From contig CP006913.1 in assembly GCA_000503875.1 (NCBI GenBank), forward strand, positions 330,001 through 362,000: DNA of 32,000 nt. Reading direction: 5' to 3'. The position numbers and the translations under genes are program-made. This document shows positions 2,475 to 26,822 of the stretch, piece after piece; position 1 is the stretch's first letter, and each line of letters opens with the position of its first letter. The DNA comes from Candidatus Saccharimonadota bacterium. Lineage in GTDB: Bacteria > Patescibacteriota > Gracilibacteria > Absconditabacterales > Absconditicoccaceae. The notes beneath the pieces were generated by a model. That model saw only the letters and a list, made by a program, of their open reading frames with translations. It searched no databases and was not told where the DNA came from.

Positions 2475-2551
2475 TGGTGGGTGATATAGGACTCGAACCT
2501 ATGACCCTCTGCTTGTAAGGCAGATGCTCTAGCCAACTGAGCTAATCACCC
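2475..2551 (-). tRNA. tRNA-Val(TAC), CCA encoded
   Basis: Reverse complement folds as a cloverleaf. Acceptor gggtgat/atcaccc, anticodon loop cttacaa, T-loop ggttcgagtcc, 3' CCA present. Confidence 0.9.
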
Positions 2552-2557
2552 AAATAA

Positions 2558-2632
2558 TGGCGGTCTTACGGGGAATTGAACCCCGGTTGCAGGATTGAAA
2601 GTCCCGTGTCCTAACCACTAGACGATAAGACC
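2558..2632 (-). tRNA. tRNA-Glu(TTC), CCA encoded
   Basis: Acceptor ggtctta/taagacc, anticodon loop ctttcaa, T-loop ggttcaattcc. Confidence 0.9.
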
Positions 2633-2639
2633 ATGCAAA

Positions 2640-2716
2640 TGGCGGAATGGAAGGGACTCGAACCCTCGACCTCCTGCGTGACAGGCAGGCGTTCTAACCA
2701 GCTGAACTACCACTCC
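2640..2716 (-). tRNA. tRNA-Asp(GTC), CCA encoded
   Basis: Acceptor ggagtgg/ccattcc, anticodon stem-loop cctgc-ctgtcac-gcagg, T-loop ggttcgagtcc. Confidence 0.9.
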
Positions 2717-2856
2717 GTATAATGTAATAATTTTTTACTCCTAATTAAGATGGTTAGTCTCCAAAAAGATGTATCTGTTCAAGCGTTCCTTGTCCTGAAG
2801 GATGAAGGATAACCAGCTGAACTACCACTCCGTGTAATGTAATAATTTTTTACTCC
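2696..2856. repeat. 46-nt direct repeat in two copies (2696-2741 and 2811-2856, 45/46 identical). Each copy holds the first ~21 nt of tRNA-Asp plus 25 nt of its upstream flank.
   Basis: aaccagctgaactaccactccgt[a/g]taatgtaataattttttactcc is read twice, 115 bp apart. Confidence 0.9.
2811..2831 (-). pseudogene. tRNA-Asp 5' fragment (acceptor 5' strand plus D-arm 5' half only)
   Basis: Identical to tRNA-Asp positions 1-21. It diverges inside the D-loop and has no anticodon or T arm downstream. Confidence 0.75.
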
Positions 2857-2863
2857 GTATTAA

Positions 2864-2938
2864 TGGAGCCAACTATCGGACTTGAACCGATGACCCACCG
2901 CTTACAAGGCGGTAGCTCTACCGCTGAGCTAAGTTGGC
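2864..2938 (-). tRNA. tRNA-Thr(TGT), CCA encoded
   Basis: Acceptor gccaact/agttggc, anticodon stem-loop accgc-cttgtaa-gcggt, T-loop ggttcaagtcc. Confidence 0.9.
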
Positions 2939-2963
2939 ATCAAAGAAGCCTTAGGCTCCTTAT

Positions 2964-3233
2964 TTATTTCGTTTTTTGAGCAACATTAAACATTTTTGCT
3001 ACTCTAGATTTTCTTCTTGCTGCGGTTTGTTTTTTTAAAACTCCAACTTTACAAGCTTTATCTATGTATTTATAAAGGTTTTGTACTTCTGTTTCAGCAA
3101 CAACAACACCTTTAGTTAAATTTTTCATAAATTTTTTGATAGCCATTTTCATTCTCAACTTAAAATCATAATTTCTTTGTTGAAGTTTAAGTGATCTTGA
3201 AAGCGCTTTTTTTGCTGATTTAGTAACTGGCAT
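2964..3233 (-). CDS. rpsT: 30S ribosomal protein S20
   Basis: MPVTKSAKKALSRSLKLQQRN... is a typical S20 N-terminus. I chose the internal ATG at 3233 rather than the track start at 3260. TAA stop. Confidence 0.85.
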   Translation of the reverse strand: MPVTKSAKKALSRSLKLQQRNYDFKLRMKMAIKKFMKNLTKGVVVAETEVQNLYKYIDKACKVGVLKKQTAARRKSRVAKMFNVAQKTK

Positions 3234-3269
3234 AGAGGGACAATAATAATTAAAATACAAATTATAATA

Positions 3270-3342
3270 CTCCGAGGGTGGGACTCGAACCCACGACCCA
3301 GTGGTTAACAGCCACTTGCTCTACCAACTGAGCTACCGCGGA
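3270..3342 (-). tRNA. tRNA-Asn(GTT), no CCA encoded
   Basis: Anticodon stem-loop agtgg-ctgttaa-ccact, T-loop ggttcgagtcc. One C-U mismatch in the acceptor stem. Confidence 0.8.
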
Positions 3343-3430
3343 CTAGCTGGATACAAAAAAATCCAAATTTTAGCGAACGACTTTATAGGAATTCAAATTC
3401 ATTTTTCAATAGATTCTGTATTATTTTATA

Positions 3431-3511
3431 TACCGGGGACAGGACTCGAACCTGCACACCGTAGGGCACTTGGTTCTAAGCCAAGCATGTCTACCATTCC
3501 ATCACCCCGGC
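3431..3511 (-). tRNA. tRNA-Leu(TAG), long variable arm
   Basis: Anticodon stem-loop cttgg-cttagaa-ccaag, variable arm tgccctacggtgt, T-loop ggttcgagtcc. Confidence 0.85.
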
Positions 3512-3519
3512 ATCTAATA

Positions 3520-3592
3520 CTCAGGAGATAGGACTCGAACCTATAACCACCTGATTCAGAGTCAGGTGCTCTACCAATTAAGCTACCCCTGA
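3520..3592 (-). tRNA. tRNA-Gln(CTG)
   Basis: U1:A72 with G73, anticodon stem-loop cctga-ctctgaa-tcagg, T-loop ggttcgagtcc. Confidence 0.8.
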
Positions 3593-3638
3593 ACACCAAG
3601 ATTATTTATTTTTAGTTTATTATAATTTTTGCGGAGGA

Positions 3639-3700
3639 TGGAGTCGAACCACCTGTCTTCGGGTTATGAGCCCAACGAGATACCGTTTCTCTACCCCGCA
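3639..3700 (-). tRNA. tRNA-Met(CAT). The anticodon stem is initiator-like (three G:C pairs); Ile2-lysidine identity is not excluded.
   Basis: Anticodon stem-loop ttggg-ctcataa-cccga, T-loop ggttcgactcc, acceptor tgcgggg/ctccgca. Confidence 0.75.
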
Positions 3701-3709
3701 ATATTTTCC

Positions 3710-3780
3710 CTGGGGAACTAGGATTCGAACCTAGACTGACGGAGTCAAAGTCCGCTGTCCTACCGTTAGACGATTCCCCA
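3710..3780 (-). tRNA. tRNA-Gln(TTG)
   Basis: Acceptor tggggaa/ttcccca, anticodon loop ctttgac, T-loop ggttcgaatcc. Confidence 0.85.
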
Positions 3781-3870
3781 ATGCAATCTCAAAAAATACA
3801 TATCCAAACGGATCGTGATGCCTGTATAGAGATTTTGTTTTCTATTTCAAGCTCTTTTTTAAAGAAAAAT

Positions 3871-3920: not shown

Positions 3921-4553
3921 TTATTGTTGAATTGGAGCAACTGGTTGTTGGATTGGAGCAACTGGTTGTTGAATTGGGGCAACTGGTTGTTGAATTGGGG
4001 CAACTGGTTGTTGAATTGGGGCAACTGGTTGTTGAATTGGAGCAACTGGTTGTTGAATTGGAGCAACTGGTTGTTGGATTGGAGCAACTGGTTGTTGGAT
4101 TGGAGCAGCATTAGCTTGATAATTTTGTGATAGGAATTGTTGTGTATCAAGTGGAGCTGTTGGTTTTTCAGCAACATAATTTTGAGCACCTTCCAAAACA
4201 GTTGATGTTCCTGTTTGTACTATTTGGTTAGCTTGATTTCCTATTGCATCAAGAGTATTACCTATTTTATTAAAAAAATTTGCTCAAGGCATATTCTGTA
4301 CTTGTGGTTGTTGAATTTGTACTCAACCTTGTATTGGTTGTTGTTGAGAAACAACTGGTGTAGCTGGTACTGGTGCTGCAATTTTGGCAATAAAATCAAC
4401 AATTCATTTTAATATTTTATCAAAAACTCAATCTTCTTGAACAACAGGTTGAATTTGTTGTTGAGGAATTTGTTGAGGCATATTTTGAATTGGAGCAACA
4501 GGTTGTTGAATTACCCCATTAGCTTGTTGATTTTGGATTTGCATAGGATCCAT
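3921..4553 (-). CDS. Q/P-rich low-complexity protein (210 aa) with a C-terminal PVAPIQQ heptad array
   Basis: ATG at 4553 is in frame with track ORF 3921-4196. The gap contains 4 TGA and no TAA or TAG. TAA stop at 3921-3923. Confidence 0.7.
3924..4112. repeat. 21-bp tandem repeat, about 9 copies (ttgttgRattggRgcaactgg), encoding PVAPIQQ on the minus strand
   Basis: Direct reading shows units starting at 3924, 3945, 3966 ... 4092, with only 2 variable positions per unit. Confidence 0.95.
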
Positions 4554-4764
4554 AATAGATGCGTTATACTATAAAATATTCTATTTACACAGTATATTGT
4601 AATCGTTTCTGTAAAAAAAGCAAATTTTTACACAAGAAAATACATATAATCTTTATAAAAAAACTTGTTTTTTTATGGAAATGATATATAGTATCAATAA
4701 ATATTCTATCGGATCTTAATTATTAGTGCTTATATACTCATTTTTAAATGATTAAAAAATAAAA

Positions 4765-5664
4765 GTGGAACAATTGCAATATCAATGATCTTGAGAAAGA
4801 ATAGATAGTTTTTTATCTAAACATTTTTCATTATCGAGAAATTTTTTTCAACATATTCTCAAAAGATGATGAGTTTTAGTAAATAGTAAACACGCAAAAA
4901 AATCGCTTCAATTACAATTAAATGATACGATAGAAATAGATAATTTTCAAAGATTTCTAGATGATCAAGCGATGGAAGAAGCGCCAAAGATAGAAATACC
5001 TATTATATATGAAGAAACAGATTTTCTTGTTATTAATAAGCCAAAAGGGGTTCTTTCTCATCCAAGAACAATTTGGGAATTACATGAACCATCAGTTTCT
5101 GGTTTTCTTTACCATAAATATAAATGATTACCAAGTATTGGAAATTTCATTAGAGCAGGGATTCTCCATAGATTAGACAAACAAACCGACGGATTAATGA
5201 TTGTTGCCAAGACAGAAAAAGGATTGGCACATTTCAAAAAATTATTTCAAGAAAAATCAGAAAGCCAAGAACAATCAGATAAAGAGGCTGTTCATCTCAA
5301 AAAATTTTATCGTGCAACTTGTGAGATTACGTCAAAGGGAAAACAATTTTTACAAAAAATAGAAAATAATCTGCCTTTTACTATCGAATCGCTCGTTGTT
5401 CCCAAACTTCCTCATAGCATATCTAAGATAGGTATCACAAAAATTCTCAAGTATACGATTACTCCAGATCAAAAAAGAGTAACAATAAATTTAGAAATTC
5501 TTACCTGAAGAACACATCAGATTAGATATCATTTGTCTCAAGCAGGATTGCCAATAGTCGGGGATTATCTCTATGGAACAGATACCTGAGAAAATATGCA
5601 GCTAACTGCATGGAAACTGATATTTGAAGATGTAGAAGGAAAAATAAAAACTTTTGAAATATAA
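4765..5664 (+). CDS. rluD: RluA-family 23S rRNA pseudouridine synthase with an N-terminal S4 domain (RluD-like)
   Basis: GTG at 4765 follows an in-frame TAA. Motifs read: ERIDSFLSKHF..SRN, HRLDKQTDGLMIVAK, and T-[TGA]-RTHQIR, which is GRTHQIR. TAA stop at 5662-5664. Frame 1 throughout. Confidence 0.85.
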
Positions 5665-5668
5665 AATA

Positions 5669-5731
5669 GTCGCCGAGACTTCCTTTATCCCATTCGCAGT
5701 AATGGGGAAAAGAAGTCTAACGACGATTTTT
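5669..5731 (+). terminator. Long compound hairpin plus T-run after rluD
   Basis: Outer stem gtcg..gagacttc / gaagtct..cgac, inner stem cccatt/aatggg, then ttttt at 5727-5731. Confidence 0.55.
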
Positions 5732-5775
5732 ATCGCTATAATATAAAACAACTATTATGTTGAAATTCCTATAAG

Positions 5776-8669: not shown

Positions 8670-8996
8670 TTATTCTTTTTTAACGAAATATCCAGTTACG
8701 AAAAGGATACCTACGATAATCAATAAAAGCCCCCAAATCATGTTTTTCAACACATAAAGACCCCAGATCAAAGCGATAATTCCCAAAATAGTGTAGATTT
8801 TTTCTTCAGTAGAAGATTTTTCCCACCAATTTCAAATTCCAGAAGCAATTACTTTTCCTTCTGCTTTTACAAATTTTGCTTCTTCATTAAATTGCTTTTT
8901 TACTTCGTCAAACTTTTTTTCAGCAGTCTTAACAACAGTTTTTACTGCTGGTTTTTTTGCTGCAGTTGGTTTTTTTGTAATTTTTTTTGCTGGCAT
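8670..8996 (-). CDS. Small membrane protein (108 aa) with a Lys-rich N-terminus and two C-terminal hydrophobic helices
   Basis: Hand translation: MPAKKITKKPTAAKKPAVKT...GIGNWWEKSS...ILGIIALIWGLYVL..LLLIIVGILFV. One internal TGA. It is missing from the track because that TGA splits it below the length cutoff. Confidence 0.6.
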
Positions 8997-9053
8997 ACCA
9001 TATAATTAATAATTAAAAATACAATACTGAATTACTGACTTTTGTATACAATT

Positions 9054-12000
9054 TTAATCTATTTGCAACTCTATTTTTTGGAGAGGTTGTTTTGTTGCTA
9101 TTTTATTCTTTGATCTAATAAATAAACCCAAGGAAATAATTCTTCTAACCTTAGCAATTTCTTCAAGCAATGTCTTGTTTATATAGTGATGTGACCAAAG
9201 TGGTAAGTGAGTTAAATGAATAGATTCTATAGATTGTTTTCCTACAAATTGTTGTAATTGCAAAAATAAATGTTCACTAATAAATGGTGCAAATGAAGCA
9301 CAAAGTTTGATATAATGAAGAAGTACGGTATATAATGTTGCATATGCTGCATATTTATCTCAATCCATTCCTGATGCCCAGAATCTTCTTCTCGATCTTC
9401 TAATATACCAATTATTGAGTTTATCGATAAATCCAAGAGCTGCTTTTGCTCCAAGATCAAGTTGATATCCATCCATTGCTTGTTCTAATTCTTGAGCAGT
9501 ATCATGAAGGGCAGCTAAAATCCATTTATCGAGTTCATTATTGATGGTATAGGTAGGAATAGATATACTTTCTAGATGTTTAAGATGTAATTTTTCTGAT
9601 GTTGCATATGCTGTTTGCCAAAGGGTATCAATATAGGTTTCATGTGAAATTAAGAGAATATTTTTTCCAGAATATTGTTGTTTGATTTCTTCATAAAAAT
9701 TCAAAATTCATTCATTATCACCAAGTCTTTCATCAACAATTAATTTTATGTCTTTTGTTCTATAGGTAGTCATTGTTTTCTTGATACTTTCAGCAGTCTG
9801 TTGTGCTCTTGTCAAGGATGAACAAACAATTACGTCAGCATCTATTCTCAAAATCTGTTCAATGAAATTTGCCTGATGTAAACTAGATTCTCATTGGGTA
9901 GTGAGTTTTCCATCGTCACCAGCATCCGCTTGTGCATGTCTCATTACATAAAGATTTGGCGTTGTATACAAAAAATTATCTACTTTTGCATAGGTTTCAA
10001 AAAATTTATAAGCATTTGTTAATGCACTAGTGAAATCTTTATATACTTGATCAACTCCTTTTTCACTAAATCTCACGGGTTCTGCCTTTACCGCAGGGGA
10101 GGAAAGGAGATACATTCTATATGCATCAGAACCATATTTTTCGAAAAGTGTTTGCGGCTCTGGATAATTTTTGAGTTTCTTGGACATTTTCTTACCATCT
10201 TCGGCAAGTACCATACCATTAATAATCACATTATTGAAAGAATTTTGTTTCATAACAGCATTTCCTACGACATGCATAGTTCTAAACCAACCTCTTGTTT
10301 GGTCAAGTCCTTCGATAATAAAGTCCGCAGGATAAATAAATTGTTTTGCTCCTTTTGTAGAATACGTTTGATTTCCTAAATAATTAGCTTGCCCAAATGG
10401 CATAGCTCCTGATTCAAACCAACAATCCATAACTTCCAAAATTCTTTTATAGACGTTTCCTTCAATAGTAAACCGATAATTGTCTACATATGGTTTGTGT
10501 AAATCTACCTGCTTATTATAAGTATTATCCCAATAATGAATTCCAAATTCTGCATTTTCCAACAAAAGTTCTTTTCTATGTGAATGATAATCTTTTTGAG
10601 CAAAAGAATTTCTACACATTGCCATAGTATCATTGTGGGCAACATAAAGAAGAGTTGCACTTGGGTATTTTGTATTCCAATCAGCAACACAAGTTTTGGT
10701 CCTTTCTAACATCAAAGAAACGGTTTCTCATTCATTGGATATTGGTTGTGTTCGGTCATATCGATTCAACGTGTCGCAGCTACAAAATTTATCTTGAATA
10801 TCAGGAGAAAGATGATCAGTAATACGATAATCAATAAAAATATTATTTCAAAGATCAAAAATAGTCTGATTTTTTTTGTCATGGATATAATCCATTATTT
10901 TTCATTCACTCCATAATTTCTGGTAATGTTCAATTTGTTTGTAATACTTGTTTTTTATTTCTTCTACAAGTTTTTTATCATATAATTCTAGCAATGTTGG
11001 CTCAATAGTTAAAAGAGCTCTCTGCAGCGGAGAAAGAACGATAACAAGATTGTTTTTGTCCGTTGTATATTTTACCAGTTGCTTAGGTAATGCCTGTGCC
11101 TGTTTGTTTCCTTCTTCAGAGAGAACTGGTTTTCCGAAGCTATCGCAGAGTTTCTTTTCGTTGTAATCTGTTTTGCCATGTCTAAGAAAGATATTTCTGG
11201 TAATATTCTTAGATCATGTTAATGTGTTAATATATAATTCATCCAAAGTTCATATAACAATCTTTTCTTCTAAATTATTTTCGTTTTCCCAAACAGGAAT
11301 TGGAGATCATCGATATCTATTTCTTGCAAGGTTCCAATCTGGAGCAGAAGAAAGAACATCAGAAAATCTATTTTTGATAGTTTCTGGTACAAATCCAATG
11401 TGATCTGCATTAGGTACGGTAGTTTTGGTAAGTTCTGGTTCTTTGATAAACCAGCTTGTAAGAGCTTTACAAATCAATGGTGTATCACATCTTCGACAAT
11501 GAGGATAAGAGTGACTATATGATTTTTGAAGAACTAATTTTCCTTCTAATTTAAGTCTAGCGATAATGTCTTTGTTGGCATCATAAACTCTGATTCATTG
11601 ATATTCTGGTACTTGATCCGTAAATTCCGCATAATCATTGAGTGGTAAGAAAAGCCAATTTTTGGCATCTTCTCTTGGCAGAAAAGCAGCGACTGCTTCA
11701 AAATCTTCTATACCAAAACTTGGTGCAATATGCACAATTCCAGTTCCATCTTCTGTGCTTACAAAATCAGCTGCTATAACTTTACAAAATTGATCTCTGT
11801 AATTATCAGGAAGTGCTTTTTTGATATACGGAAGAATTGGTTCATAAGAAAGTCAGATTATATGTTCTCATTTGAAAATATTTACTATCAAATATTCTTC
11901 TGGAGATTTATAATATTGTTTGAGTAGAGCTTGTGCAATAATATAATATTCTTTGCTATTTTTATCAAACACCATAACATATTCTATATGTTTTCCTACA

Positions 12001-13178
12001 GCTAAGAAGCTATTTCCTGGTAAAGTCCATGGAGTAGTAGTCCATGCAAGAACATTAACTGTTGCATCTCAATCTGCTTGTAATGTAGATATTTCTTGTG
12101 CTATTTTGTTATGATATACATACAAATCATAAAATTGATGAGTGATTTCATATTCATCATCTATAACTGTTTCCTCGATTTTTACAGCAAAACCAAGTGA
12201 ATTATCAGATTCTATAATTTCTGCCCAAACGCTATGAGTATGTTTTTCTGGTTCAAGATTTTTTGGTTCACCAGTATATTCTACATCTATGATATTTAGA
12301 TTAAATAACCCATGAGGCATAATTTCTTTGAAACTTCCAAGGTTATTGATTTTTGTTACATCAATACCCATCTCTTCTTTTAATTCTTTGCTGACTGTTT
12401 TTTCTAAGCTATCGCCAGTATTAATTTTTCCACCAGGGAAAACATATTTTTGTGCTTTTTTGTGATATAACATAAAAAATTTATTATCTTTTTTGAGTAC
12501 ACAATCCACAACTTGTATAAACCCATCATGAGTTGATTCATATTCAGAAGAAGGTGTTTTGTTTATGGCAAATTTGATAGTGATCGCAGGATCTTGTTTA
12601 TCTTGATATCCTTCATTTACTTCAGAATTAGAAAGCGATGTTGCACAGCTAGGGCAGTACCATTGTACTTTAAATCATTTATATACAAGATTCTGATCAT
12701 ACATATTTTTAAATGACCAAAGCACGGATTCCATAAAATCAAGGTCCATAGTGTAGTATGCATGATCCATATCTGCCCATCTTCCTATACTATCTACAAA
12801 TATTCTCCATTCATCACTAGTAGAACTTACGTATTTTCTACATTCTTCTATAAATTTTTCCATTCAGATTTTTTGTTCGATATCTTTTTTTCCATCGATT
12901 CCCAAAAATTTTTCAACCGCTTTTTCCACAGGAAGCCCATGACAATCTCGTCATCGTTCTCTGTTTACCTTATATCATTTCATAGTTTTGTATCTCAAAA
13001 TTGTGTCTTTCATAGAAGACGCAAGGCCATGTCAAAAATGAGGTGTTCCTGATGCAAATGGAGGACCATCATACGTACGTGATTGAAACATGTCAGATCT
13101 TTGATCCAATGTTTTTTGAAAAATAGTATTGGTTTTCCAATATTCTGTAATTTTGGTAAGAAGTTCTTTTTGATCCAT
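9054..13178 (-). CDS. ileS: Isoleucyl-tRNA synthetase (type-2-like core), 1374 aa, with three inserted accessory domains
   Basis: All five track fragments share one frame. I translated every gap (9264-9359, 9705-9890, 10716-12068, 12510-12674, 12864-13178) and found 18 TGA and no TAA or TAG. Motifs read: PHF-[TGA]-H (HIGH), [TGA][CGA]DCHGLP (GWD), AWTTTPWTLPGN, GTGIVHIAPSFG, SYPHC[CGA]RC, DWNLARNRY[CGA][TGA]SPIPVW, DQTRGWF, KMSKKL, NNWYIRRSRRRFW. Confidence 0.9.
9540..9971 (-). other. IleRS insertion 3: short histidine-phosphatase (SixA/PGAM-like) domain inside the anticodon-binding region
   Basis: LYVMRHAQADAG..., VCSSLTRAQQTAESI and LLISHETY lie between FFETYAKVDNF and NELDKWILAAL. Confidence 0.6.
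10509..11231 (-). other. IleRS insertion 2: histidine-phosphatase (PGAM-family) domain
   Basis: IFLRHGKTDYN, IVLSPLQRALLT, NEGETVSLMLER and LLYVAHNDTM lie between PIPVWENE..GTLDELY and VDLHKPYVDNY. Confidence 0.65.
12054..12569 (-). other. IleRS insertion 1: Nudix hydrolase domain at the entry to the CP1/editing domain
   Basis: The Nudix box GGKINTGDSLEKTVSKELKEEMGI (about 12363-12431) matches GX5(E/D)X7(R/K)EUXEEXGU. It lies between DPAITIKF and VLAWTTTPW. Confidence 0.7.
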
Positions 13179-14464: not shown

Positions 14465-14657
14465 ATCAAAATGTTTAAAAATAAAACGTTTCAAGAATAC
14501 AAAAAAGCCTGTTCAAATCAATAGATATATTGAATATATTATATCATAAAAAAGATAAAAAACAATAGATATACCTAGATATAAGCACTTTATTTTGGAA
14601 GAACAACTATTTGTGGTTATAATAGAGAAAGCAAATTTAATTATATAAAATATAGCT

Positions 14658-17600
14658 ATGAAAAAACATTGATTATTATTGTTCGTTCTTAGTGCAATTA
14701 GTTTGATAGCATGATTCAGTCATATACAAGCACAACAAACAACTAATTGAGAAATCAGATTAGAAATCAATGCATGAAATTCTTGTTGTATCTATGGTAC
14801 ATGAATCACATTTTGAAATAAAGATGTAAGCTTTTGAATAACTGAATTTTCTGGTGATTTTCTTAATTATTTTGGGGATAATGCTCGAAGCTGTAAAGAC
14901 ATGCAAGGAACGGAAACAGGATGGGCAATGTCCATTAGTATGTCTGGTTCATTAGTAAATGAAAAATGAAACATAATCCCTGCTCAAAATGTAAAAATAA
15001 GCTTTAGTCCAACAGTACAAAAAGCAGGAAATTGTATTCCGTACATAGGATGATGAAATGATATTCCCTTAAGTTGAACAATTCCTTTAGTTCAAAAAAA
15101 TGGAAACATTCCCGAAAATTATGGAAAAATCTGTGTATTAGAAACAACAGGAGTGAATTTGAAAGTGATAACAAATACTGGTCAGTCACCATGAAATTAC
15201 GTAGGAACGTTAGTGATAGATCTTCCAAATTTTATTTCCAATCAATGTGAAATTGGAGATTTACTAGAAGGAACATTACTTGATGCTGAAACAGATGGAG
15301 TTTCGTATCTCTCTTATCCATCATGAATATTTGGAGTAACGCAAAGCTGAGGAAAATTTAATTATAGAGAGGGTGATATTGTTTCGTTTAAACTTGCAAA
15401 TATAGAACTTGGAAGTGTAGCCCCTAGAAACGATAAAAAGGTTTTTGTGCCAGAATTATTAAATCTCCCAAGAACTGCATTTAATGAAGAAAGATCTATT
15501 AAAATATCTCAACTTCTTCAGTCGCTAGATAATGATAATAATCCTGATAATGGAATTATTATAACGCCAGAAGTCATCAACGCAATTACACAAACAGGAA
15601 GTATTGAAAATATTAATATAAATACGGTAGTTACAAGTGTAGGAAAAACTGTAAGAAATACAGTAGATGTTCAAGAACATCTTGGTGGAACATTGAAAGA
15701 ACAATTTATGATAGGAGTATCATTAGTTAAAGATATTAAAATATGAACAAGTTGATCTGATCTTACATGAGTAATGATTTTTGATAATAAAATGTATTTT
15801 GTCTCTGATGATGGAATTCATGGAAAAGAACTTTGGGTAAGTGATGGAACAAATTTATGAACGTATATGCTCAAAGATATCTGGCCAGGAACAATGGGTT
15901 CTTTTCCAGATAAGTTTTTATTGGGAAGTGGTCAATTATTTTTTGTTGCAACTGATGGAGAATATGGAAGAGAATTGCGAAGTACAGATGGAACTGAAGA
16001 AGGAACTCAAATGATTATAGATATTGTCATAAATGGAAATACATCAAGTCCTGGTAATTTTACGATTATGAATAATAAAGTGTATTTTGCAGCAACAGAT
16101 GGAATAAAATGACAAGAATTATGGACTAGTGATGGAACAATAAATGGAACATATATGATTAAAGATATCTATTCTGGTGGAAATGGTTCATCACCTTCAT
16201 TTTTAGTGGAAATGCAATGAAAATTATATTTTTCGGCTTCTAGTCTTTCGGGATCACAGCAATTATGGGTCAGCGATGGAACAGAAAATTGAACTTATGT
16301 AGTTAAGCCATGAGTAAATATATGAGTTCAAGTTCTTACTGTTGCTGAAAATAAAATATTTTTTCTATGAAACATCTCTCCGTATGGACAAGAGCTTTGG
16401 GTAAGCGATGGAACAGAAAGTTGAACATATATGGTCAAAGATATTTATCCTTGAACAAATAATTCATCTATAAGTTATATAAATCCCCAATTAGATAAAA
16501 TATATTTTCAGGCAAATAACGGAATAAATTGATCAGAATTGCGAATAAGTGATGGAACAGAAAGTTGAACATATATGGTAAAAGATATTTATCTTGGTAC
16601 GTGAACATCTTATATTTATAATAGCATGATTTTATGATCAGGTAAGGTGTATTTTAAAGCAACAGATGGTGTTCATGGATATGAACCATGGGTAAGTGAT
16701 GGAACAGAAAGTTGAACGTATATGCCAACAGATTTCATGCCACATTGAAGAAATTGAAGTCCGAGTAACTTAAATTATTGCAATAATAAATTATCTATGA
16801 GAGCTACAGAATGAAGTAGTATTAGATTTTTAGCATATGATTTAGTTAACGAAACAAAAGTAAATTTATGAGCTACAAGTATTGCAGCAGCTTGTTTAAA
16901 TACAACTTTATTTTTATCATTATATAATTGATCATATGGAGTAGAATTATACAAGACAGATTGAACTGTTTGAGGAACAGTTATGGTTAAAGATATAAAT
17001 CCAGGGACGAATAACTGAGATCCCAATAATTTAACAGTAGTTTGAGATAAACTTTATTTTGTAGCAAACAGTTCTTGATACTGAGTAGAATTACGAGTAA
17101 GTGATGGAACAAATATAGGAACATATATGGTCAAAGATATTTATTCTGGAACAACAAGTAGTAGTCCATATAATTTTATAGGATTTTGAGATAAAATTTA
17201 TTTTTTAGCAACTACTTCATGATATGGATATGAATTGCGAGTAAGTGATGGAACTAATGGAGGAACATATATGATGAAAGATATCTATTCTGGAAATACT
17301 ACTTCATCAATAAGTAATCTTATAGTATATTCAGGAAAACTTTATTTTAGTGCAAATAATTGAATTAATTGAGCTGAGTTACGAGTAAGTGATGGAACAG
17401 AAACATGAACATATATGGTAAAAGATATTTATTCTGGTAATAATAATTCTAGTCCAAGCAACTTTATTATTTACTTAGATAAATTATATTTTAGAGCAGA
17501 TAATAATACAAATTGAGTAGAATTATGGACAAGTGATGGAACAGAAAGCGGTACGTATATGGTAAAAGATATTTATTCTGGAAGTAGTGATTCATATCCT

Positions 17601-19562
17601 GCTAATTTAACTATTTTTTGAGATAAAATTTATTTTTGAGCACAAAGTTCATGAAGTTGATATGATTTATGGACAAGTAATGGTACAGAAACTGGAACAT
17701 ACATAGTTTATAATAGTTTGTCGCCAAATTATATAACGGTATTTTGAAATAAATTGTATTTTTCAGCCTATAATTCATTATATTGACAAGAACTATGGAC
17801 TAGTGATGGAACAGAAATTTGAACGTATATGGTCAAAGATATTTATACGTGAACAAATAATTCAGTACCATGATCATTTACATCAGCATGAGATGAATTA
17901 TTTTTCTCTGCTAATGATTGAATACATGGACAAGAATTACGAGTTACAGATGGAACAGAGTGATGAACACATTTATTTGATGATATTAGTCCTGATGGAA
18001 ATTATTTAGACTTTACCTTACTTGGAATACAAGAAGATAAAATATATTTAAGAGCAAGTTTTTTGACACAAACATGAATGGAATTATATATTTCACAAGA
18101 TGAATTTCAGTCCATGTCTTTGGTTAAAGATATATATGTATGACGAAACGCTAATTCAAGTCCAAGTAATTTTATAATTAATTGAGGTAAAGTATATTTT
18201 ACTGCATATGCTGCTGGATATTGAATAGAATTGTGGGAAACAGATTGAACAGAAAATGGAACTCAATTAGTCAAAGATATAAACCCATGAGCAGCAAGTT
18301 CAAATCCATATACTTTGATACCAAAATGAGATAATATTTTCTTTAAGGCAACGACATCTACTAACTGACAGGAACTTCGAATGACAGATTGAACAGAATG
18401 ATGAACCAAATTAGTCAAAGATATATATCCGGGTACAACAAGTTCAAGCATTGATTATCTTGTTGCAAATGATGATGCTCTTTATTTTTTTAGGGCAGAC
18501 AACGGCCTTGATTGATTAGAACTGTGGACTAGTGATGGAACAACTAATGGGACAACTCTAGTTAAAGATATATATATAGATTGATTAACATCTACTCCAA
18601 CACCAGAAGTTTTTATAAATAATAAATTATATTTTTCAGCTGCCGATAATAGATGACGTGAATTACGAACAAGTGATGGAACAAGTTGAGGTACTTCCTT
18701 ATTGAAAGATATAAATACAAGTGCTGGTTTAAATAGTAATCCATATAATTTTACAAAGTTATGAAATATTACATATTTTGCAGCTTGAGATGGAATAAAT
18801 TGAACAGAGTTACGAAGAAGTGATGGTACAGTTTGATGAACGTATATAGTTAAAGATATTTATGTCTGAGCAAATTATTCATCAACACCAAATAATTTAA
18901 CAGTTATGGATGATAAAATATATTTTGCAGCAAATAGCTCTTGATATTGAGTAGAATTATGGATTACCGACGGAACAAATGGATGAACACAAATAATAAA
19001 AGATATTTATTCATGAGCTAGTTCTTCATCACCTGTTAATTTAAGGGTTGCATGAGATAAAATATATTTTGCTGCAAATAATAATTATGGACAAGAATTG
19101 CGAGTAAGTGATGGAACAGCAAATGGTACTCAAATGATAAAAGATATCTACTCAGGAGCTAATAGTTCAAATCCACAAATACTTACAGTTATGGATGATA
19201 AAGTATATTTTAGAGCCAATAATTATTATAGTTGATCGGAGCTCCGAGTAACAGATGGAACCATATCTGGAACTGTTTTAGTAAAAGATATAGATCCAAG
19301 ACTCTATTACTCTTCTACTCCAAGTATTTTAACTTCAATCGGAAATAAACTTTATTTCTCAGCAATCAATCAACTCAATGGAAACGAGCTTCGAGTAACA
19401 GATGGTATAATTAATGGAACGGGAACCTATCTTGTAAAAGATCTTTGGAGTGGTTCACAAAATTCAAATCCTTCAAATATTGTTTCGTTAAATAATATTC
19501 TTTATTTCACTGCTCAAGATCAACTCAATTGATTAGAACTTCGAAGATTTGTAGAAGATTAA
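14658..19562 (+). CDS. Secreted giant ELWxxDGT-repeat protein, 1634 aa (signal peptide, ~370-aa N-terminal domain, ~25 repeats)
   Basis: ATG at 14658 and signal-like MKKHGLLLFVLSAISLIAGFSHIQAQ. Frame 3 is held through to TAA 19560-19562. I checked most of the length codon by codon and it contains dozens of TGA and no TAA or TAG. The track shows only 2 short pieces of it. Confidence 0.85.
15780..19559 (+). repeat. About 25 tandem coding repeats of ~50-55 aa. Consensus: ..(K)LYF.A.d...G.EL(W)vSDGT..GT.mVKDIy.G..sS.P.n.
   Basis: The periodic SDGT/TDGT and VKDIY strings were read directly from the sequence. Confidence 0.9.
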
Positions 19563-21049: not shown

Positions 21050-23506
21050 CTATACTCCAACTCTAAAATAAATTTCTTTATCAACTAATTCTCTTTTTGT
21101 TCCCCATTTGAGTGCAGAAATTTGTTTCATAATAGCTACTTTTTCTGGGGTATTAGTTACAGGATCATTATATGGTATTTTACAAGAAATACTAAATGGT
21201 TTTGATGTTGTTCCATTTACACAAAGCTTCATTGCTCATTTAAAAATTTCAGAATTCATAAGATCTGCTTTGGAAAAATCTGGAGCAAATACATTTTCCA
21301 ATACTTCAGCATCATTTGGTCATATTTTAAATGTAAGAAGTGAACCAACGTTACCCAAAATAGTTTTGGAAAGGTCCAATTCTCATCAGAGTCCTTTTTG
21401 TTTTAACTGATCCATATATTGATGTGCCATAGTAAGTCACAATCTATATTTTCTAGATTCAGATAATATACTTTCAAATGATTGAGATACATAATTCTGG
21501 AATTCATCCACATACAAGAAAAATGGTACTCTTTCTTTTGGTTCCATAGAAGCTCTTTTAAGTGTTGCCTGCTTGATTTGCATAGCAATCATTTTTCCAA
21601 TCAATTTACTATTTTCTTCACCAACCAAACCTTTTGCCAATTTACAAAGAATAATTTTCTTTTGTTGCATAGCTTCACCAAAATTAAATGCTGATTTTGG
21701 TTGTCCAATAATATTTCTTACATAGGTACTGGTTGTAAAAGGACCAAATTTTGCTTGGATAAACGGGATAATTTCTGCTTTTTCTCTATCACCCATTTTT
21801 TTATACGTCTTGTTCCACCAAGCAGCAATTACTGGGTTTGTTACATTTCTTATTTTACTTTCTGCATAGGCATCATCAGTAAAGAGTCTCATTATATCTA
21901 CCAAAGTTCATCATTCAGGTTGTTCCATAAGCAAAAAACATGCATTACGGAAGTAATCCTGGATTCTTGGACCAAAGATTTCTTCTCCATACATACTTAC
22001 AAACATTTCAATCAAATCATTTGTTACCACATCTCTTTCATCTTCAGTTTCAGTTCCATCCAAAGGATTGAATGCAAGAGGGTATTCGGTATTGGATAAA
22101 TCAAAATAGATTAGATCATCAATTCTTTCTTTTGGGAATCTATCCATCACAAAATCACATAATTCTCCATGAGGATCAAGAATACAAAATCCATTTCCAG
22201 CTTTCATATCTTCTACTGCTTGAGTTATTAATAAGGTTGATTTACCAGTACCTGTTTGTCCAATAATATAAAGATGTCTAAATCTATCTTCTTGAGTAAA
22301 TCTAATTTCTTTCTTTGTTCAAAGATAGGTATTCCACCCGAGTAATATTCATTTATCTGGCAAATTATCAGGTGCAGATACAATTTTATAATTTTGGAAA
22401 CTAAACCTTGGATTTCTATTAAACTTTGGATGTGGAAAATGGAGTATAGAAGAAAGTTCTTTGATATTTAAAATATGATGTTTTCCAAAAGAAATCATTT
22501 GATTTCGTAAAGAATCTTCACTATCAAATAATCTTTGAGTAAACGACTTAGCAAAAGTTACAATATCTTTTGTATGTTTAAATTTGAATCCATTGAGTCC
22601 TGTATAGGTATATTGGAAAAATGATTTTGCCAAATCATCAATAATTTTTTTGGGTCTATGGGGATCTGGAGAAGTAGCTAACGCCCTAATTTTTACATGG
22701 AAGATTTCATCATTTAATTTTTTATCCAAATCTCCAAGCTGATTCTGAGAGAAACTATAATTTTTTTCTTCTTTATCTTCTTTCTTTTCATCCATTTTGA
22801 AAAACCCAAAGAAGTTACTTAAAAATCATTTTTTAGATTTTTTTGCTTTATCTGTTTGTTCTCTAAGATATTTAAAAAGACTCTCATGAAGCGGTTGTAT
22901 CAATAATTGAAGAGACAATTTTTCATCTACAAATACTTTAGAATAAGCAGATAAAATACTATCCATAGGATCTGCCTCAAATGATTCATAGGTTCTAATA
23001 GGGAAAATATTATCCTTGGTAAGAGTAAATTCTCCTCAATCCATATATTTACCTGTTTCCAAAAGTTTAGGTTGTTCTATAGGCTCCACAACAGCTCCAG
23101 GATAGAAACTTCCAATTGCTTTTTCAAGTGTTTCCAAATAGTCCAAAGGAACAGCTATAATAAATTTAATTACTTCTTTTTCTATAAAAATTTCCATAGC
23201 AACATAATTGTTACCTAGATGTGTGTTTTTCCAGCTATCATCAAAAAGAGCATAAAGATTTTTGTAAATCTGACTCATAACTTCAAGATTTTGTTTCATA
23301 CTTCAAATACTATCTCCAGAATCTCATTCTGATGTTTTAACTATATTTTTTGATATTTTTACTTGAAGAAATCTTAATTTTTTTGTCTGAGATTTTCTAT
23401 GTTGATAAGCTAATTGTACTAAGAAATAATGATAAAGAAAAAATCATCCTATCGAAAGGGCTATAACAAGTATGATAGCAAGTATGATGATATTTTGGAA
23501 ATCCAT
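21050..23506 (-). CDS. TraD/VirD4-like (type IV coupling protein family) P-loop ATPase with an N-terminal TM helix, 818 aa
   Basis: Five track fragments share one frame. I hand-translated the gaps and found 14 TGA and no TAA or TAG. Motifs read: N-terminal MDFQNIIILAIILVIALSIGGFFLY, Walker A GQTGTGKST (22235-22261), ILDPHGEL, Walker B FFLYVDEFQN, and SRKYRLGLTMAHQY. Confidence 0.75.
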
Positions 23507-23593
23507 CAACAAAGAATTAATATAAAACTTGTATCAAGTATAAACAAAATGCAAAAAAAAACAAATTTTTACCCTTATTTTTTAGTAAAAAAG

Positions 23594-25327: not shown

Positions 25328-25395
25328 AAATACGTACAAAAATATAAACGCATCAAGTATAGCAAAACAAAGCTCCTTTTCAAGAAAAGAAAAAG

Positions 25396-25671
25396 CTATG
25401 CATTATTTTGCATAGCTTCTTTAGGAAATCCGACGAAGCAAATATAATTTGCTTCTTTAGAGCCAAAGAAAATCTTTAATTTTTCAAAGTCTTCTTCTGC
25501 AATACCTCGAGGTATGCCCATATAATTTTCAAATTCCTCGAAAGGAATTGGGCATGTTTTTGAAGAGAGGTTTTCTAAAGATAGATTAATATCTTTACAA
25601 TCTTTTTCATCGAAACTATGCGAAGAAATGAAAATTTGTTTTCTTAAGTCCGTTTTGTGAGGCCAATTCAT
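25396..25671 (-). CDS. Hypothetical 91-aa protein (TGA-free cassette)
   Basis: Intact ATG..TAG ORF with its own promoter and AAAACTAAAAACTAAAAAG leader. No recognisable motif. Confidence 0.5.
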   Translation of the reverse strand: MNWPHKTDLRKQIFISSHSFDEKDCKDINLSLENLSSKTCPIPFEEFENYMGIPRGIAEEDFEKLKIFFGSKEANYICFVGFPKEAMQNNA

Positions 25672-25811: not shown

Positions 25812-25885
25812 GGGTGAGTAGCTCAATTGGTTAGAGCAGGTCCCTCTTAAGGACAAGGTTCAGGGTTCGATTCCCTGCTCGCCTA
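25812..25885 (+). tRNA. tRNA-Lys(CTT)
   Basis: Acceptor gggtgag/ctcgcct, D-arm agctcaattggttagagc, anticodon loop ctcttaa, T-loop ggttcgattcc. Confidence 0.85.
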
Positions 25886-26644: not shown

Positions 26645-26729
26645 AAAGAAATAAGAGAAGATAAATTACCTATAATAATATATGAAAAGATAGAAAAAAG
26701 CAAATAATAGTGATTTTTTAAAAACCAGC

Positions 26730-26815: not shown

Positions 26816-26822
26816 AAATCCT

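Follow-up and report, generated by a model that had tools for sequence, protein, structure and literature searches.

The window analysed here, a stretch of 32,000 nucleotides, carries on its minus strand a complete ileS gene (9054..13178) of 1374 codons, which runs from an ATG at 13178 to a TAA stop at 9054-9056 when TGA is read as glycine and CGA and CGG as tryptophan. The gene encodes the isoleucyl-tRNA synthetase (IleRS) of an Absconditabacteria (SR1) bacterium, confirmed here to have three domains of hydrolase families inserted in its body. A first-pass annotation made from the sequence alone had described a single polypeptide of 1374 amino acids in a frame devoid of TAA and TAG, and the frame scan agrees, with neither codon found, a chance of ~1e-38 for such an open frame as estimated from its base composition, and a longest run of 236 codons in the other five frames. 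The frame contains 18 TGA, 6 CGA and 1 CGG codons, and comparison with 99 standard-code relatives gave a glycine majority at 10 of the 12 core TGA positions and a tryptophan majority at four of the five core CGA/CGG positions, as exemplified by the CGA-TGA-CGA that supplies the W-G-W of WGWDCHG. Recoded codons also occur where that annotation had placed them, with TGA at the edge of insert 1 (aa 370), in insert 2 (aa 759, 777 and 817) and in insert 3 (aa 1096 and 1157), and CGA in insert 2 (aa 806 and 809), and their position inside the inserts identifies these as native. Under code 11 the 18 TGA codons interrupt the frame, as would be expected if the assembly were chimeric, if the gene were a pseudogene, or if three or four genes had been misread as one through the use of TGA as a sense codon. 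Such an artefact is nevertheless effectively refuted, not only by the length of the frame and the match of TGA and CGA to conserved Gly and Trp positions, but also by the presence of the identical gene (P0001 in code-4 translation) on three contigs from independent Logan and ENA assemblies, by the same collinear architecture in more than 120 SR1 homologues of 47-98% identity, and by standard-code Patescibacteria that show this architecture in a frame open under code 11.

The window protein scores 759.6 bits against the NCBI IleRS equivalog TIGR00392 (cutoff 621.4), and the Pfam families forecast by the first-pass annotation were all recovered, namely tRNA-synt_1 (6.8e-114), Anticodon_1 (1.1e-24), NUDIX (1.7e-7; 31.8 bits against a cutoff of 21.1) and His_Phos_1 (2.5e-26, in four stretches across two regions). 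Together with the alignment to the solved yeast IleRS 9wqs (E = 4.8e-184), these matches establish a full IleRS core with one Nudix and two histidine phosphatase domains in frame. Core motifs follow the order seen in type-2 (mupirocin-resistant-type) IleRS, compared here through yeast 7d5c, 8wnd and 9wqs, Priestia megaterium IleRS2 8c8v and T. thermophilus 1ile, that is HIGH, WGWDCHG, a CP1 domain with WTTTPWT and its H and D residues, RYWGxPIPxW, DCWFESG, KMSKS and a helical anticodon-binding domain, with a Foldseek E of ~1e-24. Segment A (aa 1-205; 12564..13178, minus strand as for all segments and inserts) corresponds to 9wqs residues 16-211 and forms the N-terminal half of the Rossmann fold, with the family-conserved HIGH motif (PHFGHG, aa 46-51), WGWDCHGLP, a CPSC zinc knuckle and the first CP1 strand. 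Segment B (aa 372-660; 11199..12065; 9wqs residues 215-498) is the CP1 editing domain, in which WTTTPWTLPGN (379-389), H483 and D492 precede HCWRC and RYWGSPIPVW; its editing residues are invariant among 70 homologues and it matches IleRS editing domains with a TMt of 0.76-0.79. Segment C (aa 891-1061; 9996..10508; 9wqs residues 498-666) includes the stem-contact region and presents DLHKPYVD, DCWFESG, DQTRGWF and KMSKK (997-1001) in columns invariant within the family, while segment D (aa 1212-1374; 9057..9545) is the helical anticodon-binding domain (Pfam Anticodon_1, aa 1217-1368). Intact HIGH, KMSKS and CP1 editing residues indicate that the SR1 core, as far as motifs can tell, performs ordinary IleRS chemistry. 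The suspected shortness of the C-terminus is real, as the protein ends 6 residues past the anticodon-binding domain, at about residue 856 of the 990 of 9wqs, without a DUF5915 domain. Other type-2 IleRS have a C-terminal overhang of 120-215 residues, and that of the SR1 clade measures 0-1; DUF5915 is present in relatives outside the SR1 clade and missing only from it and the sister lineages P0122 and P0123, all of which have an insert at site 3. The window protein thus departs from type-2 IleRS in its extra domains of 166, 230 and 150 aa, its lack of DUF5915 and its use of TGA for Gly and CGA/CGG for Trp.

Insert 1 (aa 206-371, 166 aa; 12066..12563) is a MutT/RppH-like Nudix domain located within CP1, 8 residues ahead of the WTTTPWT editing motif, with the Nudix box G250-x5-D256-x7-K264-E265-L-K-E268-E269-M-G271-I272. 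It shares its fold, box and three predicted catalytic glutamates with MutT and the Bacillus-Bdellovibrio-type RppH enzymes (3ees, 4jzu and 1mut); BdRppH (3ees) is its best PDB match by sequence, followed by NUDX1 and MutT, and also by structure (TMt 0.68-0.70). In contrast to these enzymes it is embedded in another protein, scores 36 bits with the MutT model (cutoff 98), and bears in the window's lineage the conservative changes E256D and R264K. Most homologues have the canonical box (GEREEEG pattern), and E265, E268 and E269 are conserved in every one that bears the insert, which shows long-term purifying selection on the putative Nudix catalytic residues. Insert 2 (aa 661-890, 230 aa; 10509..11198) lies between RYWGSPIPVW and DLHKPYVD and is a PhoE/CobC/PspA-like member of histidine phosphatase branch 1, the branch that includes dPGM, with PspA (4ij5) and dPGM as PDB sequence matches and a TMt of 0.6-0.75 against PGM, PSP and Rv2419c. 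It possesses the full R-H-G...R...E...H set of that branch in R666-H667-G668, R720 (SPLQRA), E818 (in a G-E-T whose Gly is encoded by TGA) and H848, and differs in its location within IleRS and, in SR1 relative to other Patescibacteria, in an additional helical sub-insert of ~40 aa. R666, H667, R720, E818 and H848 are conserved in 100% of 121 sequences and invariant in 24 divergent lineages at 26-32% identity, and long-term purifying selection on all of these predicted catalytic residues is thereby shown.

Insert 3 (aa 1062-1211, 150 aa; 9546..9995), also matched by Pfam His_Phos_1 stretches, is a short SixA-like histidine phosphatase domain which has the R-H...R...H residues (R1080-H1081, R1124 and H1179) and the size of SixA. 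The first-pass annotation had seen RHG...SPL.RA...GE(T/S)...H twice, which holds for insert 2, whereas insert 3 reads RHA...SSLTRA...SHE, with no clear instance of the proton-donor motif GE(T/S) in its sequence. It differs from SixA in this absence of an identifiable proton-donor Glu, in its place within IleRS, in its score of 42.7 bits against TIGR00249 (cutoff 74.5) and in its degeneracy among some relatives; eight SR1 homologues (P0030, P0035, P0036, P0037, P0042, P0047, P0112 and P0119) retain the scaffold but lack the catalytic residues, and to judge from these sequences insert 3 is in decay in several relatives and partly reduced to a pseudo-enzyme. None of the three inserts reaches a curated NCBIfam equivalog cutoff (MutT, SixA, CobC). 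AlphaFold2 folds them as separate confident domains (pLDDT 85-93, 84-96 and 72-92 for inserts 1 to 3), although the whole IleRS model has a pTM of 0.40-0.42 with a low-confidence Rossmann core, and the spacing between active sites therefore cannot be read from it.

The survey across the CPR, which covered IleRS as the host protein, showed that the inserts are conserved across the SR1 order and patchy in other Patescibacteria. The inserts are orthologous site by site. In many Patescibacteria the IleRS bears inserts of the His_Phos, Nudix or GNAT type, which are combined patchily, recur at several sites and are also found in tandem; site 2 is occupied by His_Phos in Paceibacteria, Saccharibacteria, Peregrinibacteria/Peribacteria, Yanofskybacteria, Spechtbacterales and Minisyncoccia, and one Patescibacteria-type relative, P0185, has both GNAT and His_Phos within IleRS. 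The window IleRS is the extreme case of this Patescibacteria-wide insertion of His_Phos, Nudix and GNAT domains. Presence and absence vary among IleRS with 55-66% identical cores, and P0114, an SR1 homologue, has no Nudix at all, from which it follows that the domains are dispensable for aminoacylation. A literature search found no publication on a phosphatase-IleRS link or on these inserts. A curated precedent for IleRS hosting an accessory small-molecule enzyme does exist in NCBIfam NF040702 (‘ileS_w_GNAT’), with an N-acetyltransferase; unlike that family, the window protein (284 bits against a cutoff of 1999) has no GNAT and its accessory domains are hydrolases rather than a transferase. 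The classical comparison is with CP1 of the class Ia synthetases IleRS, ValRS and LeuRS, likewise a hydrolytic domain inserted in the Rossmann fold, which acts in cis on the tRNA 3' end and inside which the window Nudix is itself nested. CP1, however, is universal, specific for mischarged tRNA and of unrelated fold, whereas the inserts described here are confined to particular lineages and each of them can be dispensed with.

The best matches to a profile of the embedded phosphatase are free-standing PhoE-like Patescibacteria proteins of ~190 aa. In all five look-ups the gene for the closest of these lies between argS and an insert-free ileS, downstream of the former and directly upstream of the latter, with gaps or overlaps to ileS of 2-10 nt, while the Firmicute CobC used as a control is located in a cobalamin operon. 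At nine loci with an embedded phosphatase argS immediately precedes ileS; several other Patescibacteria loci have neither an IleRS insert nor an adjacent phosphatase gene. At a further locus (L003) a free-standing Nudix gene is found 4 nt downstream of ileS, and its product is 32% identical (E = 2e-22) to the Nudix embedded in another Patescibacteria IleRS. The phosphatase family is thus shown to be genetically tied to ileS across Patescibacteria, either inserted or as a separate gene between argS and ileS. A free-standing, orthologue-like phosphatase gene wedged between these genes where IleRS is insert-free constitutes Rosetta-stone-type evidence of a functional link, with the difference from the usual end-to-end fusions that the phosphatase is inserted internally at a specific IleRS loop. 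Gene adjacency could also itself have caused the fusion by local rearrangement, instead of reflecting a shared function.

We give about even chances to an explanation in which a type-2 editing IleRS acts as scaffold while the Nudix and the first phosphatase are active in cis on a nucleotide-type substrate. The host is the housekeeping, editing-competent type-2 (eukaryote-like) IleRS of Absconditabacterales (SR1), now a scaffold for three alpha/beta hydrolase domains and devoid of its usual C-terminal tRNA-binding domain. Substrates would be of a phosphorylated or pyrophosphorylated nucleotide type, either generated at the synthetase or interfering with it, and in the simplest two-step scheme the Nudix would first split a diphosphate linkage, leaving a phosphate for the histidine phosphatase to strip. 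Candidates include adenylate-derived by-products (Ap4A/ApnN), the Ap4A clean-up proposed, beside one of NDP-X, in the first-pass annotation being possible, or a blocked tRNA end. Motif and catalytic-residue conservation, the predicted folds, the shared architecture of the SR1 homologues and the genetic linkage speak for this explanation; the scores below every equivalog cutoff, the patchy presence among similar cores, the loci with neither insert nor neighbouring phosphatase gene, a possible origin of the fusion from adjacency and the low overall pTM speak against it. The SixA-like third domain would be mainly structural in SR1, perhaps replacing the lost C-terminal domain, and may still be catalytic in the window's lineage.

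An unlikely but still credible alternative is that genome streamlining brought together a housekeeping MutT-type sanitiser and a broad PhoE-type phosphatase with no mechanistic tie to aminoacylation, genes beside ileS having fallen by local rearrangement into permissive surface loops of a protein that is essential and expressed constitutively, where the enzymes just kept their former jobs. The generic, free-standing nature of the nearest phosphatase kin, the patchy gain and loss of domains that IleRS can do without, and the position of the phosphatase gene beside ileS, from which a local fusion would readily arise by mechanical means, are all consistent with this. So too are the faster evolution of the inserts (38-42% pairwise identity within the SR1 family against 62-72% for the core) and the nature of the three insertion points, which are loops of 3, 0 and 22 residues in yeast IleRS and of 0-22 residues in solved IleRS. 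Chance capture accounts poorly, however, for the recurrence of three small-molecule enzyme families (His_Phos, Nudix and GNAT) at several sites and in tandem, for tight operon packing kept across divergent lineages, and for the repetition of internal insertion, which is far more constrained than end-to-end fusion.

It is distinctly improbable that tRNA-Ile itself is the substrate of the Nudix in CP1 and of the phosphatase, which would clear its 3' end of pyrophosphate or phosphate, its 5' end of triphosphate, or the tRNA of a nucleotide cap, and so make damaged or toxin-modified tRNA chargeable. The E. coli CCA-adding enzyme has an HD phosphatase able to heal tRNA ends, and toxSAS toxins pyrophosphorylate tRNA CCA ends. 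The best Nudix neighbours by sequence and structure include the RNA pyrophosphohydrolases BdRppH, BsRppH and YtkD, the editing motif 8 residues from the Nudix binds the CCA end, clearing of a 3'-PP end needs a pyrophosphatase and then a phosphatase, and both genes flanking the phosphatase in argS-phosphatase-ileS encode tRNA enzymes. Yet the Nudix resembles MutT-type NTP hydrolases just as strongly, the AlphaFold2 model lends no geometric support, repair in one synthetase would cover tRNA-Ile only, and the tRNA genes of the window form a tight polycistron with 6-8 nt spacers, which makes general 5'-triphosphate ends unlikely. We consider it very unlikely that the inserts are pseudo-enzymes throughout, with structural, tRNA-binding or ligand-sensing (allosteric) roles that offset the lost C-terminal domain. 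The loss of R-H...R...H from insert 3 in eight homologues whose scaffold motifs remain, the invariable coincidence of DUF5915 loss with a site-3 insert, and E256D and R264K in the window's Nudix box all point in this direction. Against it stand the invariance of the insert 2 catalytic residues over very deep divergence, the largely canonical Nudix box with its three metal-binding glutamates, and the other Patescibacteria that bear inserts yet retain DUF5915, and on this evidence a non-catalytic role fits insert 3 only.

Few enzymes have been studied as closely as the aminoacyl-tRNA synthetases, and to our knowledge the domains added to them are editing, RNA-binding or protein-interaction modules. 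The isoleucyl-tRNA synthetase (IleRS) of the window presents an architecture that is real, native and strongly conserved, the new element of which, as far as it can be read from motifs and alignments, is a set of internally inserted accessory domains resembling catalytic-type hydrolases of the Nudix and histidine phosphatase families. CP1, itself a hydrolytic insertion of the class Ia synthetases, is the classical analogue. Among curated families the nearest precedent for an added enzyme domain in IleRS is NF040702 ('ileS_w_GNAT'), but the window protein scores 284 bits against 1999 and has no acetyltransferase Pfam match, placing it outside that family. No description of a Nudix or histidine phosphatase domain in a synthetase, or of a synthetase-Nudix fusion, was found in the full-text literature, a scope outside which most subscription journals fall.

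The gene occupies 9054-13178 on the minus strand, running from a start codon (ATG) at 13178 to a stop codon (TAA) at 9054-9056, and its 1374 codons, which correspond to a protein of about 160 kDa, contain no internal TAA or TAG, although 18 TGA codons would break the frame under the standard bacterial code. With this base composition, a frame of that length would stay open by chance with a probability of about 1e-38, and the single long reading frame described in the first-pass annotation is confirmed; none of the remaining five frames exceeds 236 codons, and a plus-strand reading of the same interval gives short frames only. The recoded codons fall on conserved glycine and tryptophan columns, as predicted by the code proposed for the Absconditabacterales, in which TGA is read as glycine and CGA/CGG as tryptophan (Shulgina and Eddy, 2021; PMC8629427). 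Among 99 IleRS relatives with apparently standard-code sequences, glycine predominates at 10 of the 12 TGA sites in the alignable core and tryptophan at four of the five CGA/CGG sites there, the tryptophan counts being 99/99 at position 77, 97/99 at position 623 and 77/99 at position 562. At residues 75-77 (12948-12956, minus strand) the run CGA-TGA-CGA encodes the W-G-W of WGWDCHGLP, position 76 being glycine in 97 of the 99 relatives, and this run, like the gene as a whole, offers a compact example of the joint reassignment. The window has 10 tRNA genes, with no tRNA-Gly(UCA) and no Trp-type tRNA(UCG) in the set; nine of the 10 form a minus-strand cluster at 2475-3781 (Val-TAC, Glu-TTC, Asp-GTC, Thr-TGT, Asn-GTT, Leu-TAG, Gln-CTG, Met/CAT and Gln-TTG) with several genes spaced by just 6-8 nt; the tenth, Lys-CTT, lies at 25812-25885 on the plus strand.

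The nearest named homologues carry the NCBI names Candidatus Absconditabacteria, Absconditabacterales or SR1. An identical copy of the window gene is held in the databases as P0001, on three contigs of public assemblies and mistranslated with code 4. In this entry and in many of the homologues P0003-P0120 the database translation is wrong, with tryptophan at TGA and arginine at CGA, so that conserved glycine and tryptophan positions are misread, and NCBI labels such SR1 proteins only as 'class I tRNA ligase family protein'.

Scored over the whole protein, the IleRS equivalog model TIGR00392 reaches 759.6 bits against a cutoff of 621.4, in contrast to the ValRS and LeuRS models, which score far lower and under their own cutoffs. 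The corrected translation matches Pfam tRNA-synt_1 (6.8e-114) and Anticodon_1 (PF08264; 1.1e-24, aa 1217-1368), and a phmmer comparison with PDB sequences aligned four blocks to yeast cytoplasmic IleRS (E = 4.8e-184). The HIGH motif is present as PHFGHG (aa 46-51), with G49 encoded by TGA, and the KMSKS motif as KMSKK (aa 997-1001), in which K997, M998 and K1000 are invariant among 70 non-redundant homologues. The CP1 editing motif, W379-T380-T381-T382-P-W-T385...N389, is accompanied by H483 and D492; across the same 70 homologues T380-T382, T385, N389, H483 and D492 are invariant and W379 nearly so, and the zinc-knuckle cysteines (CPSC, HCWRC), HIGH and KMSKK are likewise invariant or nearly so. 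At the level of sequence these features indicate an intact IleRS, predicted to be competent in aminoacylation and editing, and assign the core to the IleRS family on every defining feature tested except the type-2 C-terminal domain. DUF5915, which represents this tRNA-binding domain, has no Pfam match in the window protein, and the chain stops six residues past Anticodon_1, at about residue 856 of 990 in yeast IleRS, from which we conclude that the domain is absent. Relatives outside the SR1 clade carry DUF5915 and 120-215 extra C-terminal residues; among the IleRS compared, the domain is missing solely from the SR1 clade and from the homologues P0122 and P0123. The complete core and the short C-terminus noticed at first reading are thereby both borne out. 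A downstream ORF at 8670-9005 was considered as a detached IleRS C-terminus and rejected, its product being lysine-rich and, by eye, of membrane-spanning appearance.

Three breaks in the phmmer alignment to the yeast enzyme delimit the inserts, which span aa 206-371 (insert 1), 661-890 (insert 2) and 1062-1211 (insert 3), at points where the yeast chain has 3, 0 and 22 residues, respectively. Insert 1 lies within the CP1 editing domain, eight residues ahead of WTTTPWTLP, and insert 2 between RYWGSPIPVW and DLHKPYVD/DCWFESG, and insert 3 separates the helical anticodon-binding domain from the stretch that follows KMSKS; going by the general layout of class Ia synthetases, we take the sites to be those named CP2/CP3 and stem-contact. 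Pfam assigns NUDIX (PF00293; 1.7e-7, 31.8 bits against 21.1) to aa 224-308 and His_Phos_1 (2.5e-26) to four stretches in two regions. The forecast that hmmscan would return tRNA-synt_1, Anticodon_1, NUDIX and two His_Phos_1 matches thus came true, and the description of an IleRS core with three in-frame inserts holds. An intein or other excised element was ruled out on a reading of the sequence, the inserts being ordinary enzyme folds lacking intein-like boundary residues.

The Nudix box of insert 1, G250-x5-D-x7-K-E-L-K-E-E-M-G-I, departs from the reference GX5EX7REUXEEXGU by conservative E-to-D and R-to-K replacements. Its best match among PDB sequences is BdRppH, the Bdellovibrio RNA pyrophosphohydrolase (3ees), followed by NUDX1, MutT and BsRppH, and matches to the NCBIfam models for MutT, YtkD and RppH each stay below cutoff (for MutT, 36.4 bits with a cutoff of 97.9 for TIGR00586 and 37.9 bits with a cutoff of 148 for NF008044), so that insert 1 is best classified as a MutT/RppH-like Nudix domain that is no MutT equivalog. 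A proline 16 residues past the Nudix box, presumably a mark of ADP-ribose pyrophosphatases, is present as P288, but was dropped as an indicator of substrate class because it is not conserved in the family. Insert 2 scores 93 bits against 21.7 with His_Phos (PF00300), displays the motifs RHG, SPLQRA, G-E-T and AHN, and has PspA-type phosphoserine phosphatase and dPGM as its closest solved structures, all of which identify it as a predicted branch-1 histidine phosphatase; the glycine of G-E-T is a TGA codon, in agreement with the earlier claim that the inserts are native and carry recoded codons. Insert 3, of 150 aa, contains RHA, SSLTRA and SHE, with R1080-H1081-(A), R1124 and H1179 present, and its best NCBIfam model is SixA (TIGR00249), at 42.7-47.3 bits against a cutoff of 74.5, a likeness confined to size and motifs. 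Of the two histidine phosphatases proposed in the first-pass annotation, insert 2 has the full motif set, but in insert 3 a proton-donor glutamate is not identifiable in the window sequence. The inserts are thus assigned to the Nudix and His_Phos superfamilies, with the MutT, SixA and CobC equivalog models below cutoff.

The best 120 database homologues, 1189-1421 aa in length and 47-98% identical to the window protein, contain PF00300 in all cases and PF00293 in most. In insert 2, the 121 sequences aligned share R666, H667, R720, E818 and H848 without exception. The Nudix box is canonical (G...E...RE..EE.G) in most homologues, the E256D and R264K replacements belonging to the subclade of the window, and E265, E268 and E269 are kept in every homologue with a Nudix insert; one homologue, P0114 (1189 aa), lacks this insert entirely. 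Mean pairwise identity is 38-42% in the inserts against 62-72% in the core, and faster evolution with retention of catalytic residues is what would be expected for functional enzymes under a looser structural constraint. In insert 3 the R-H...R...H set is retained in about 90% of homologues; eight (P0030, P0035, P0036, P0037, P0042, P0047, P0112 and P0119) have it replaced, their insert being shortened to 119-139 aa with persistence of the scaffold motifs FIExVLRINPDIIY and KLPTYxIxNE.

AlphaFold2 models were computed for two 1200-aa constructs, aa 175-1374 and aa 1-1200 (models m1557df82d702 and m6c53a5c1b5b3), from the mistranslated P0001 sequence, which has tryptophan for glycine, and a shallow family-only alignment. 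The pLDDT ranged over 85-93 for the Nudix insert, 84-96 for insert 2 and 72-92 for insert 3 in the two constructs. Rossmann segments in the aa 175-1374 construct, and the entire Rossmann core in the aa 1-1200 construct, fell below 50, probably because few sequences were aligned, the first construct was truncated and the input had tryptophan for glycine, and not for a biological reason. With a pTM of 0.42 (aa 175-1374) and 0.40 (aa 1-1200) and a poor Rossmann core, the models give no inter-domain geometry or active-site distances. On the question raised at first reading, whether the inserts fold as independent lobes, their local confidence supports separate domains. A Foldseek search with the first model returned type-2 and eukaryotic IleRS and isolated IleRS editing domains at TMt 0.76-0.79; local matches were BdRppH (TMt 0.68-0.70) and AtNUDX1 (0.61-0.62) for insert 1, consistent with a predicted alpha/beta/alpha Nudix fold, and PGM, phosphoserine phosphatase and Rv2419c-type phosphatases (TMt 0.6-0.75) for insert 2, whose fold they support.

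The distribution of the inserts beyond SR1 was followed by comparing aa 175-1374 with 1.84 billion cluster representatives and measuring gaps between core segments with purpose-built HMMs in the 148 nearest IleRS representatives. An RHG-containing insert of 180-200 aa is present at site 2 in about 50 of the 148 (P0127, P0129 and P0132 among them), and RHG-containing inserts are found at site 3 in P0128, P0149, P0181 and others, at both sites in P0134, P0146 and P0148, and as tandem copies at site 2 in P0147. A Nudix domain occurs alone at site 1 in P0136, P0213 and P0233, together with a site-2 phosphatase in P0226 (named 'Patescibacteria group bacterium'), and at site 2, replacing the phosphatase, in P0266 (1126 aa); P0185 (1859 aa) combines GNAT and His_Phos with an enlarged C-terminus. 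These architectures were independently confirmed by Pfam, and the catalytic series R, H, R, E, R, H is invariant across 24 aligned site-2 regions that are 26-32% identical. IleRS sequences with tryptophan at conserved glycine positions represent TGA-recoded lineages, and they include P0136 with the Nudix domain only, P0135 with site 3 only, P0123 with Nudix and site 3, and P0122 (1740 aa) with Nudix, a 626-aa site-2 insert and site 3.

A scan of GTDB species genomes, a sample from which SR1 was left out as the pattern RYWG is written there in recoded codons, gave at least 80 loci, at least 18 of them with a site-2 insert. Among the loci listed, those with the insert are mostly Patescibacteria (Spechtbacterales, Paceibacteria, Peregrinibacteria/Peribacteria, Saccharibacteria, Minisyncoccia and Yanofskybacteria), with tandem double phosphatases in the Peribacteria/Peregrinibacteria loci L016, L020 and L021, and the insert is absent from Flavobacterium, Nocardia and similar type-2 IleRS. 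The survey for further inserts urged at first reading has therefore located them throughout SR1 and in other Patescibacteria. The SR1 site-2 insert matches other site-2 inserts best and the site-3 insert other site-3 inserts, suggesting that each insertion is old and has been inherited site-specifically; at the same time, presence and absence flip between IleRS with 55-66% identical cores in a rough neighbour-joining tree, so that gains or losses must have been frequent.

A profile of the embedded site-2 phosphatase has its best matches in free-standing proteins of about 190 aa, several of which are named Patescibacteria or 'broad specificity phosphatase PhoE'. This profile search supplied the linkage set; a word-seeded search with a single embedded phosphatase gave 15 matches. 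In all five loci checked (phosphatase at 6001-6588 of L082, 6001-6591 of L084, 6001-6561 of L086, 5001-5597 of L088 and 5001-5618 of L089) the free-standing phosphatase lies directly upstream of an insert-free ileS, with a gap of 4-7 nt or an overlap of 7-10 nt, the adjoining IleRS being 946-987 aa long with DUF5915 present. The phosphatase directly follows argS in four of the five, one small opposite-strand ORF intervening in the fifth, and the loci L082-L089 share a conserved Patescibacteria order of L20-L35-IF3-SmpB on one strand with argS, PhoE-like phosphatase, ileS, a small ORF and recO. In that match list, the CobC of a Firmicute belongs instead to a cobalamin operon. Since argS directly precedes ileS in at least nine GTDB loci with an embedded phosphatase, argS-phosphatase-ileS and argS-ileS with the phosphatase inside appear as one neighbourhood in two states, which is evidence of the Rosetta-stone type for joint action of the phosphatase and IleRS, or at least for their co-expression. 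Some Patescibacteria loci have neither an embedded nor an adjoining phosphatase. The Nudix domain has one comparable case, in the Spechtbacterales locus L003, where a 162-aa free-standing Nudix gene (5254-5739) begins 4 nt after an ileS that itself already has a site-2 phosphatase, and its product is 32% identical (E = 2e-22) to the embedded site-1 Nudix domain of P0226. In L086-L088, Nudix genes situated some 5 kb upstream of ileS resemble the embedded domain in a generic way only and are not counted as linkage.

The alignments thus show, at the level of sequence, full conservation of the catalytic machinery in the Nudix domain and the first phosphatase and tolerance of catalytic death in the third domain, and the loci show genetic coupling of the phosphatase family to ileS. 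We infer that the Nudix domain and the first phosphatase are working enzymes that act in cis with IleRS, their substrate being of a phosphorylated nucleotide type; cleavage of a diphosphate followed by hydrolysis of a monoester would be the natural chemical reading. Candidate substrates would be adenylate-derived dinucleoside polyphosphates, the idea put forward in the first-pass annotation, or a blocked tRNA end. The third domain may be chiefly structural in SR1, possibly standing in for the lost C-terminal tRNA-binding domain. The main rival to such cis activity is hitch-hiking, whereby a housekeeping phosphatase gene that happened to neighbour ileS would have been taken up into permissive loops time and again, adjacency then having led to fusion without signalling a shared function. 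The patchy gain and loss of the inserts would fit such a history, as would the generic PhoE-like character of the closest free-standing relatives; the recurrence of three small-molecule enzyme families at several IleRS sites and the tight, conserved packing of the operon argue against it.

A more specific version of cis activity, to which we give little credence, is that the Nudix domain and the phosphatase form a repair or detoxification unit for tRNA or an aminoacyl-adenylate analogue. The Nudix domain, lying beside the editing site that binds CCA, would free a blocked tRNA-Ile end of its pyrophosphate or cap, or else break down a toxic nucleotide attached to the synthetase, and the phosphatase would take off the leftover phosphate; a substrate put out of use by a toxin or a competitor could in this way be charged by IleRS. 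Relevant to tRNA repair, HD domains of CCA-adding enzymes can have phosphatase activity on tRNA ends, and the window encodes a CCA-adding enzyme with a PolyA_pol head, RNA-binding and HD domains at 23594-25402 (minus strand). If true, a repair unit would constitute an unknown layer of quality control or defence inside a synthetase, spread across the Candidate Phyla Radiation.

The significance of the architecture rests on its order-wide occurrence, the selected catalytic residues and the operon-linked phosphatase elsewhere in Patescibacteria, which together point to an unrecognised biochemical partnership of IleRS with phospho- and pyrophospho-hydrolases in a large and poorly understood part of bacterial diversity. 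Standard-code homologues such as the one at the Paceibacteria locus L004, which has the site-2 insert, split versions such as the free-standing phosphatase and insert-free IleRS of Candidatus Staskawiczbacteria (GCA_001820475.1, locus L085), P0114 with its Nudix-free chain and the homologues with a dead third domain provide natural material for comparison, and the argS-phosphatase-ileS linkage makes the association functionally testable.

Several other genes of the window were noted. A plus-strand ORF of 1634 aa at 14649-19562, with a signal-peptide-like N-terminus and about 35 repeats of the form ELW(V/T)SDGT..GT..VKDI..., has a weak match to DUF5980 as its sole Pfam match and probably encodes a large surface or secreted repeat protein. 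A Gln/Pro-rich ORF at 3921-4568 (minus strand) closes with PVAPIQQ repeated nine times in tandem. The interval 21050-23581 (minus strand) encodes a VirD4/TraG-like coupling-protein ATPase (T4SS-DNA_transf, TraG-D_C), and 26694-28181 (plus strand) a PIN-PhoH fusion protein.
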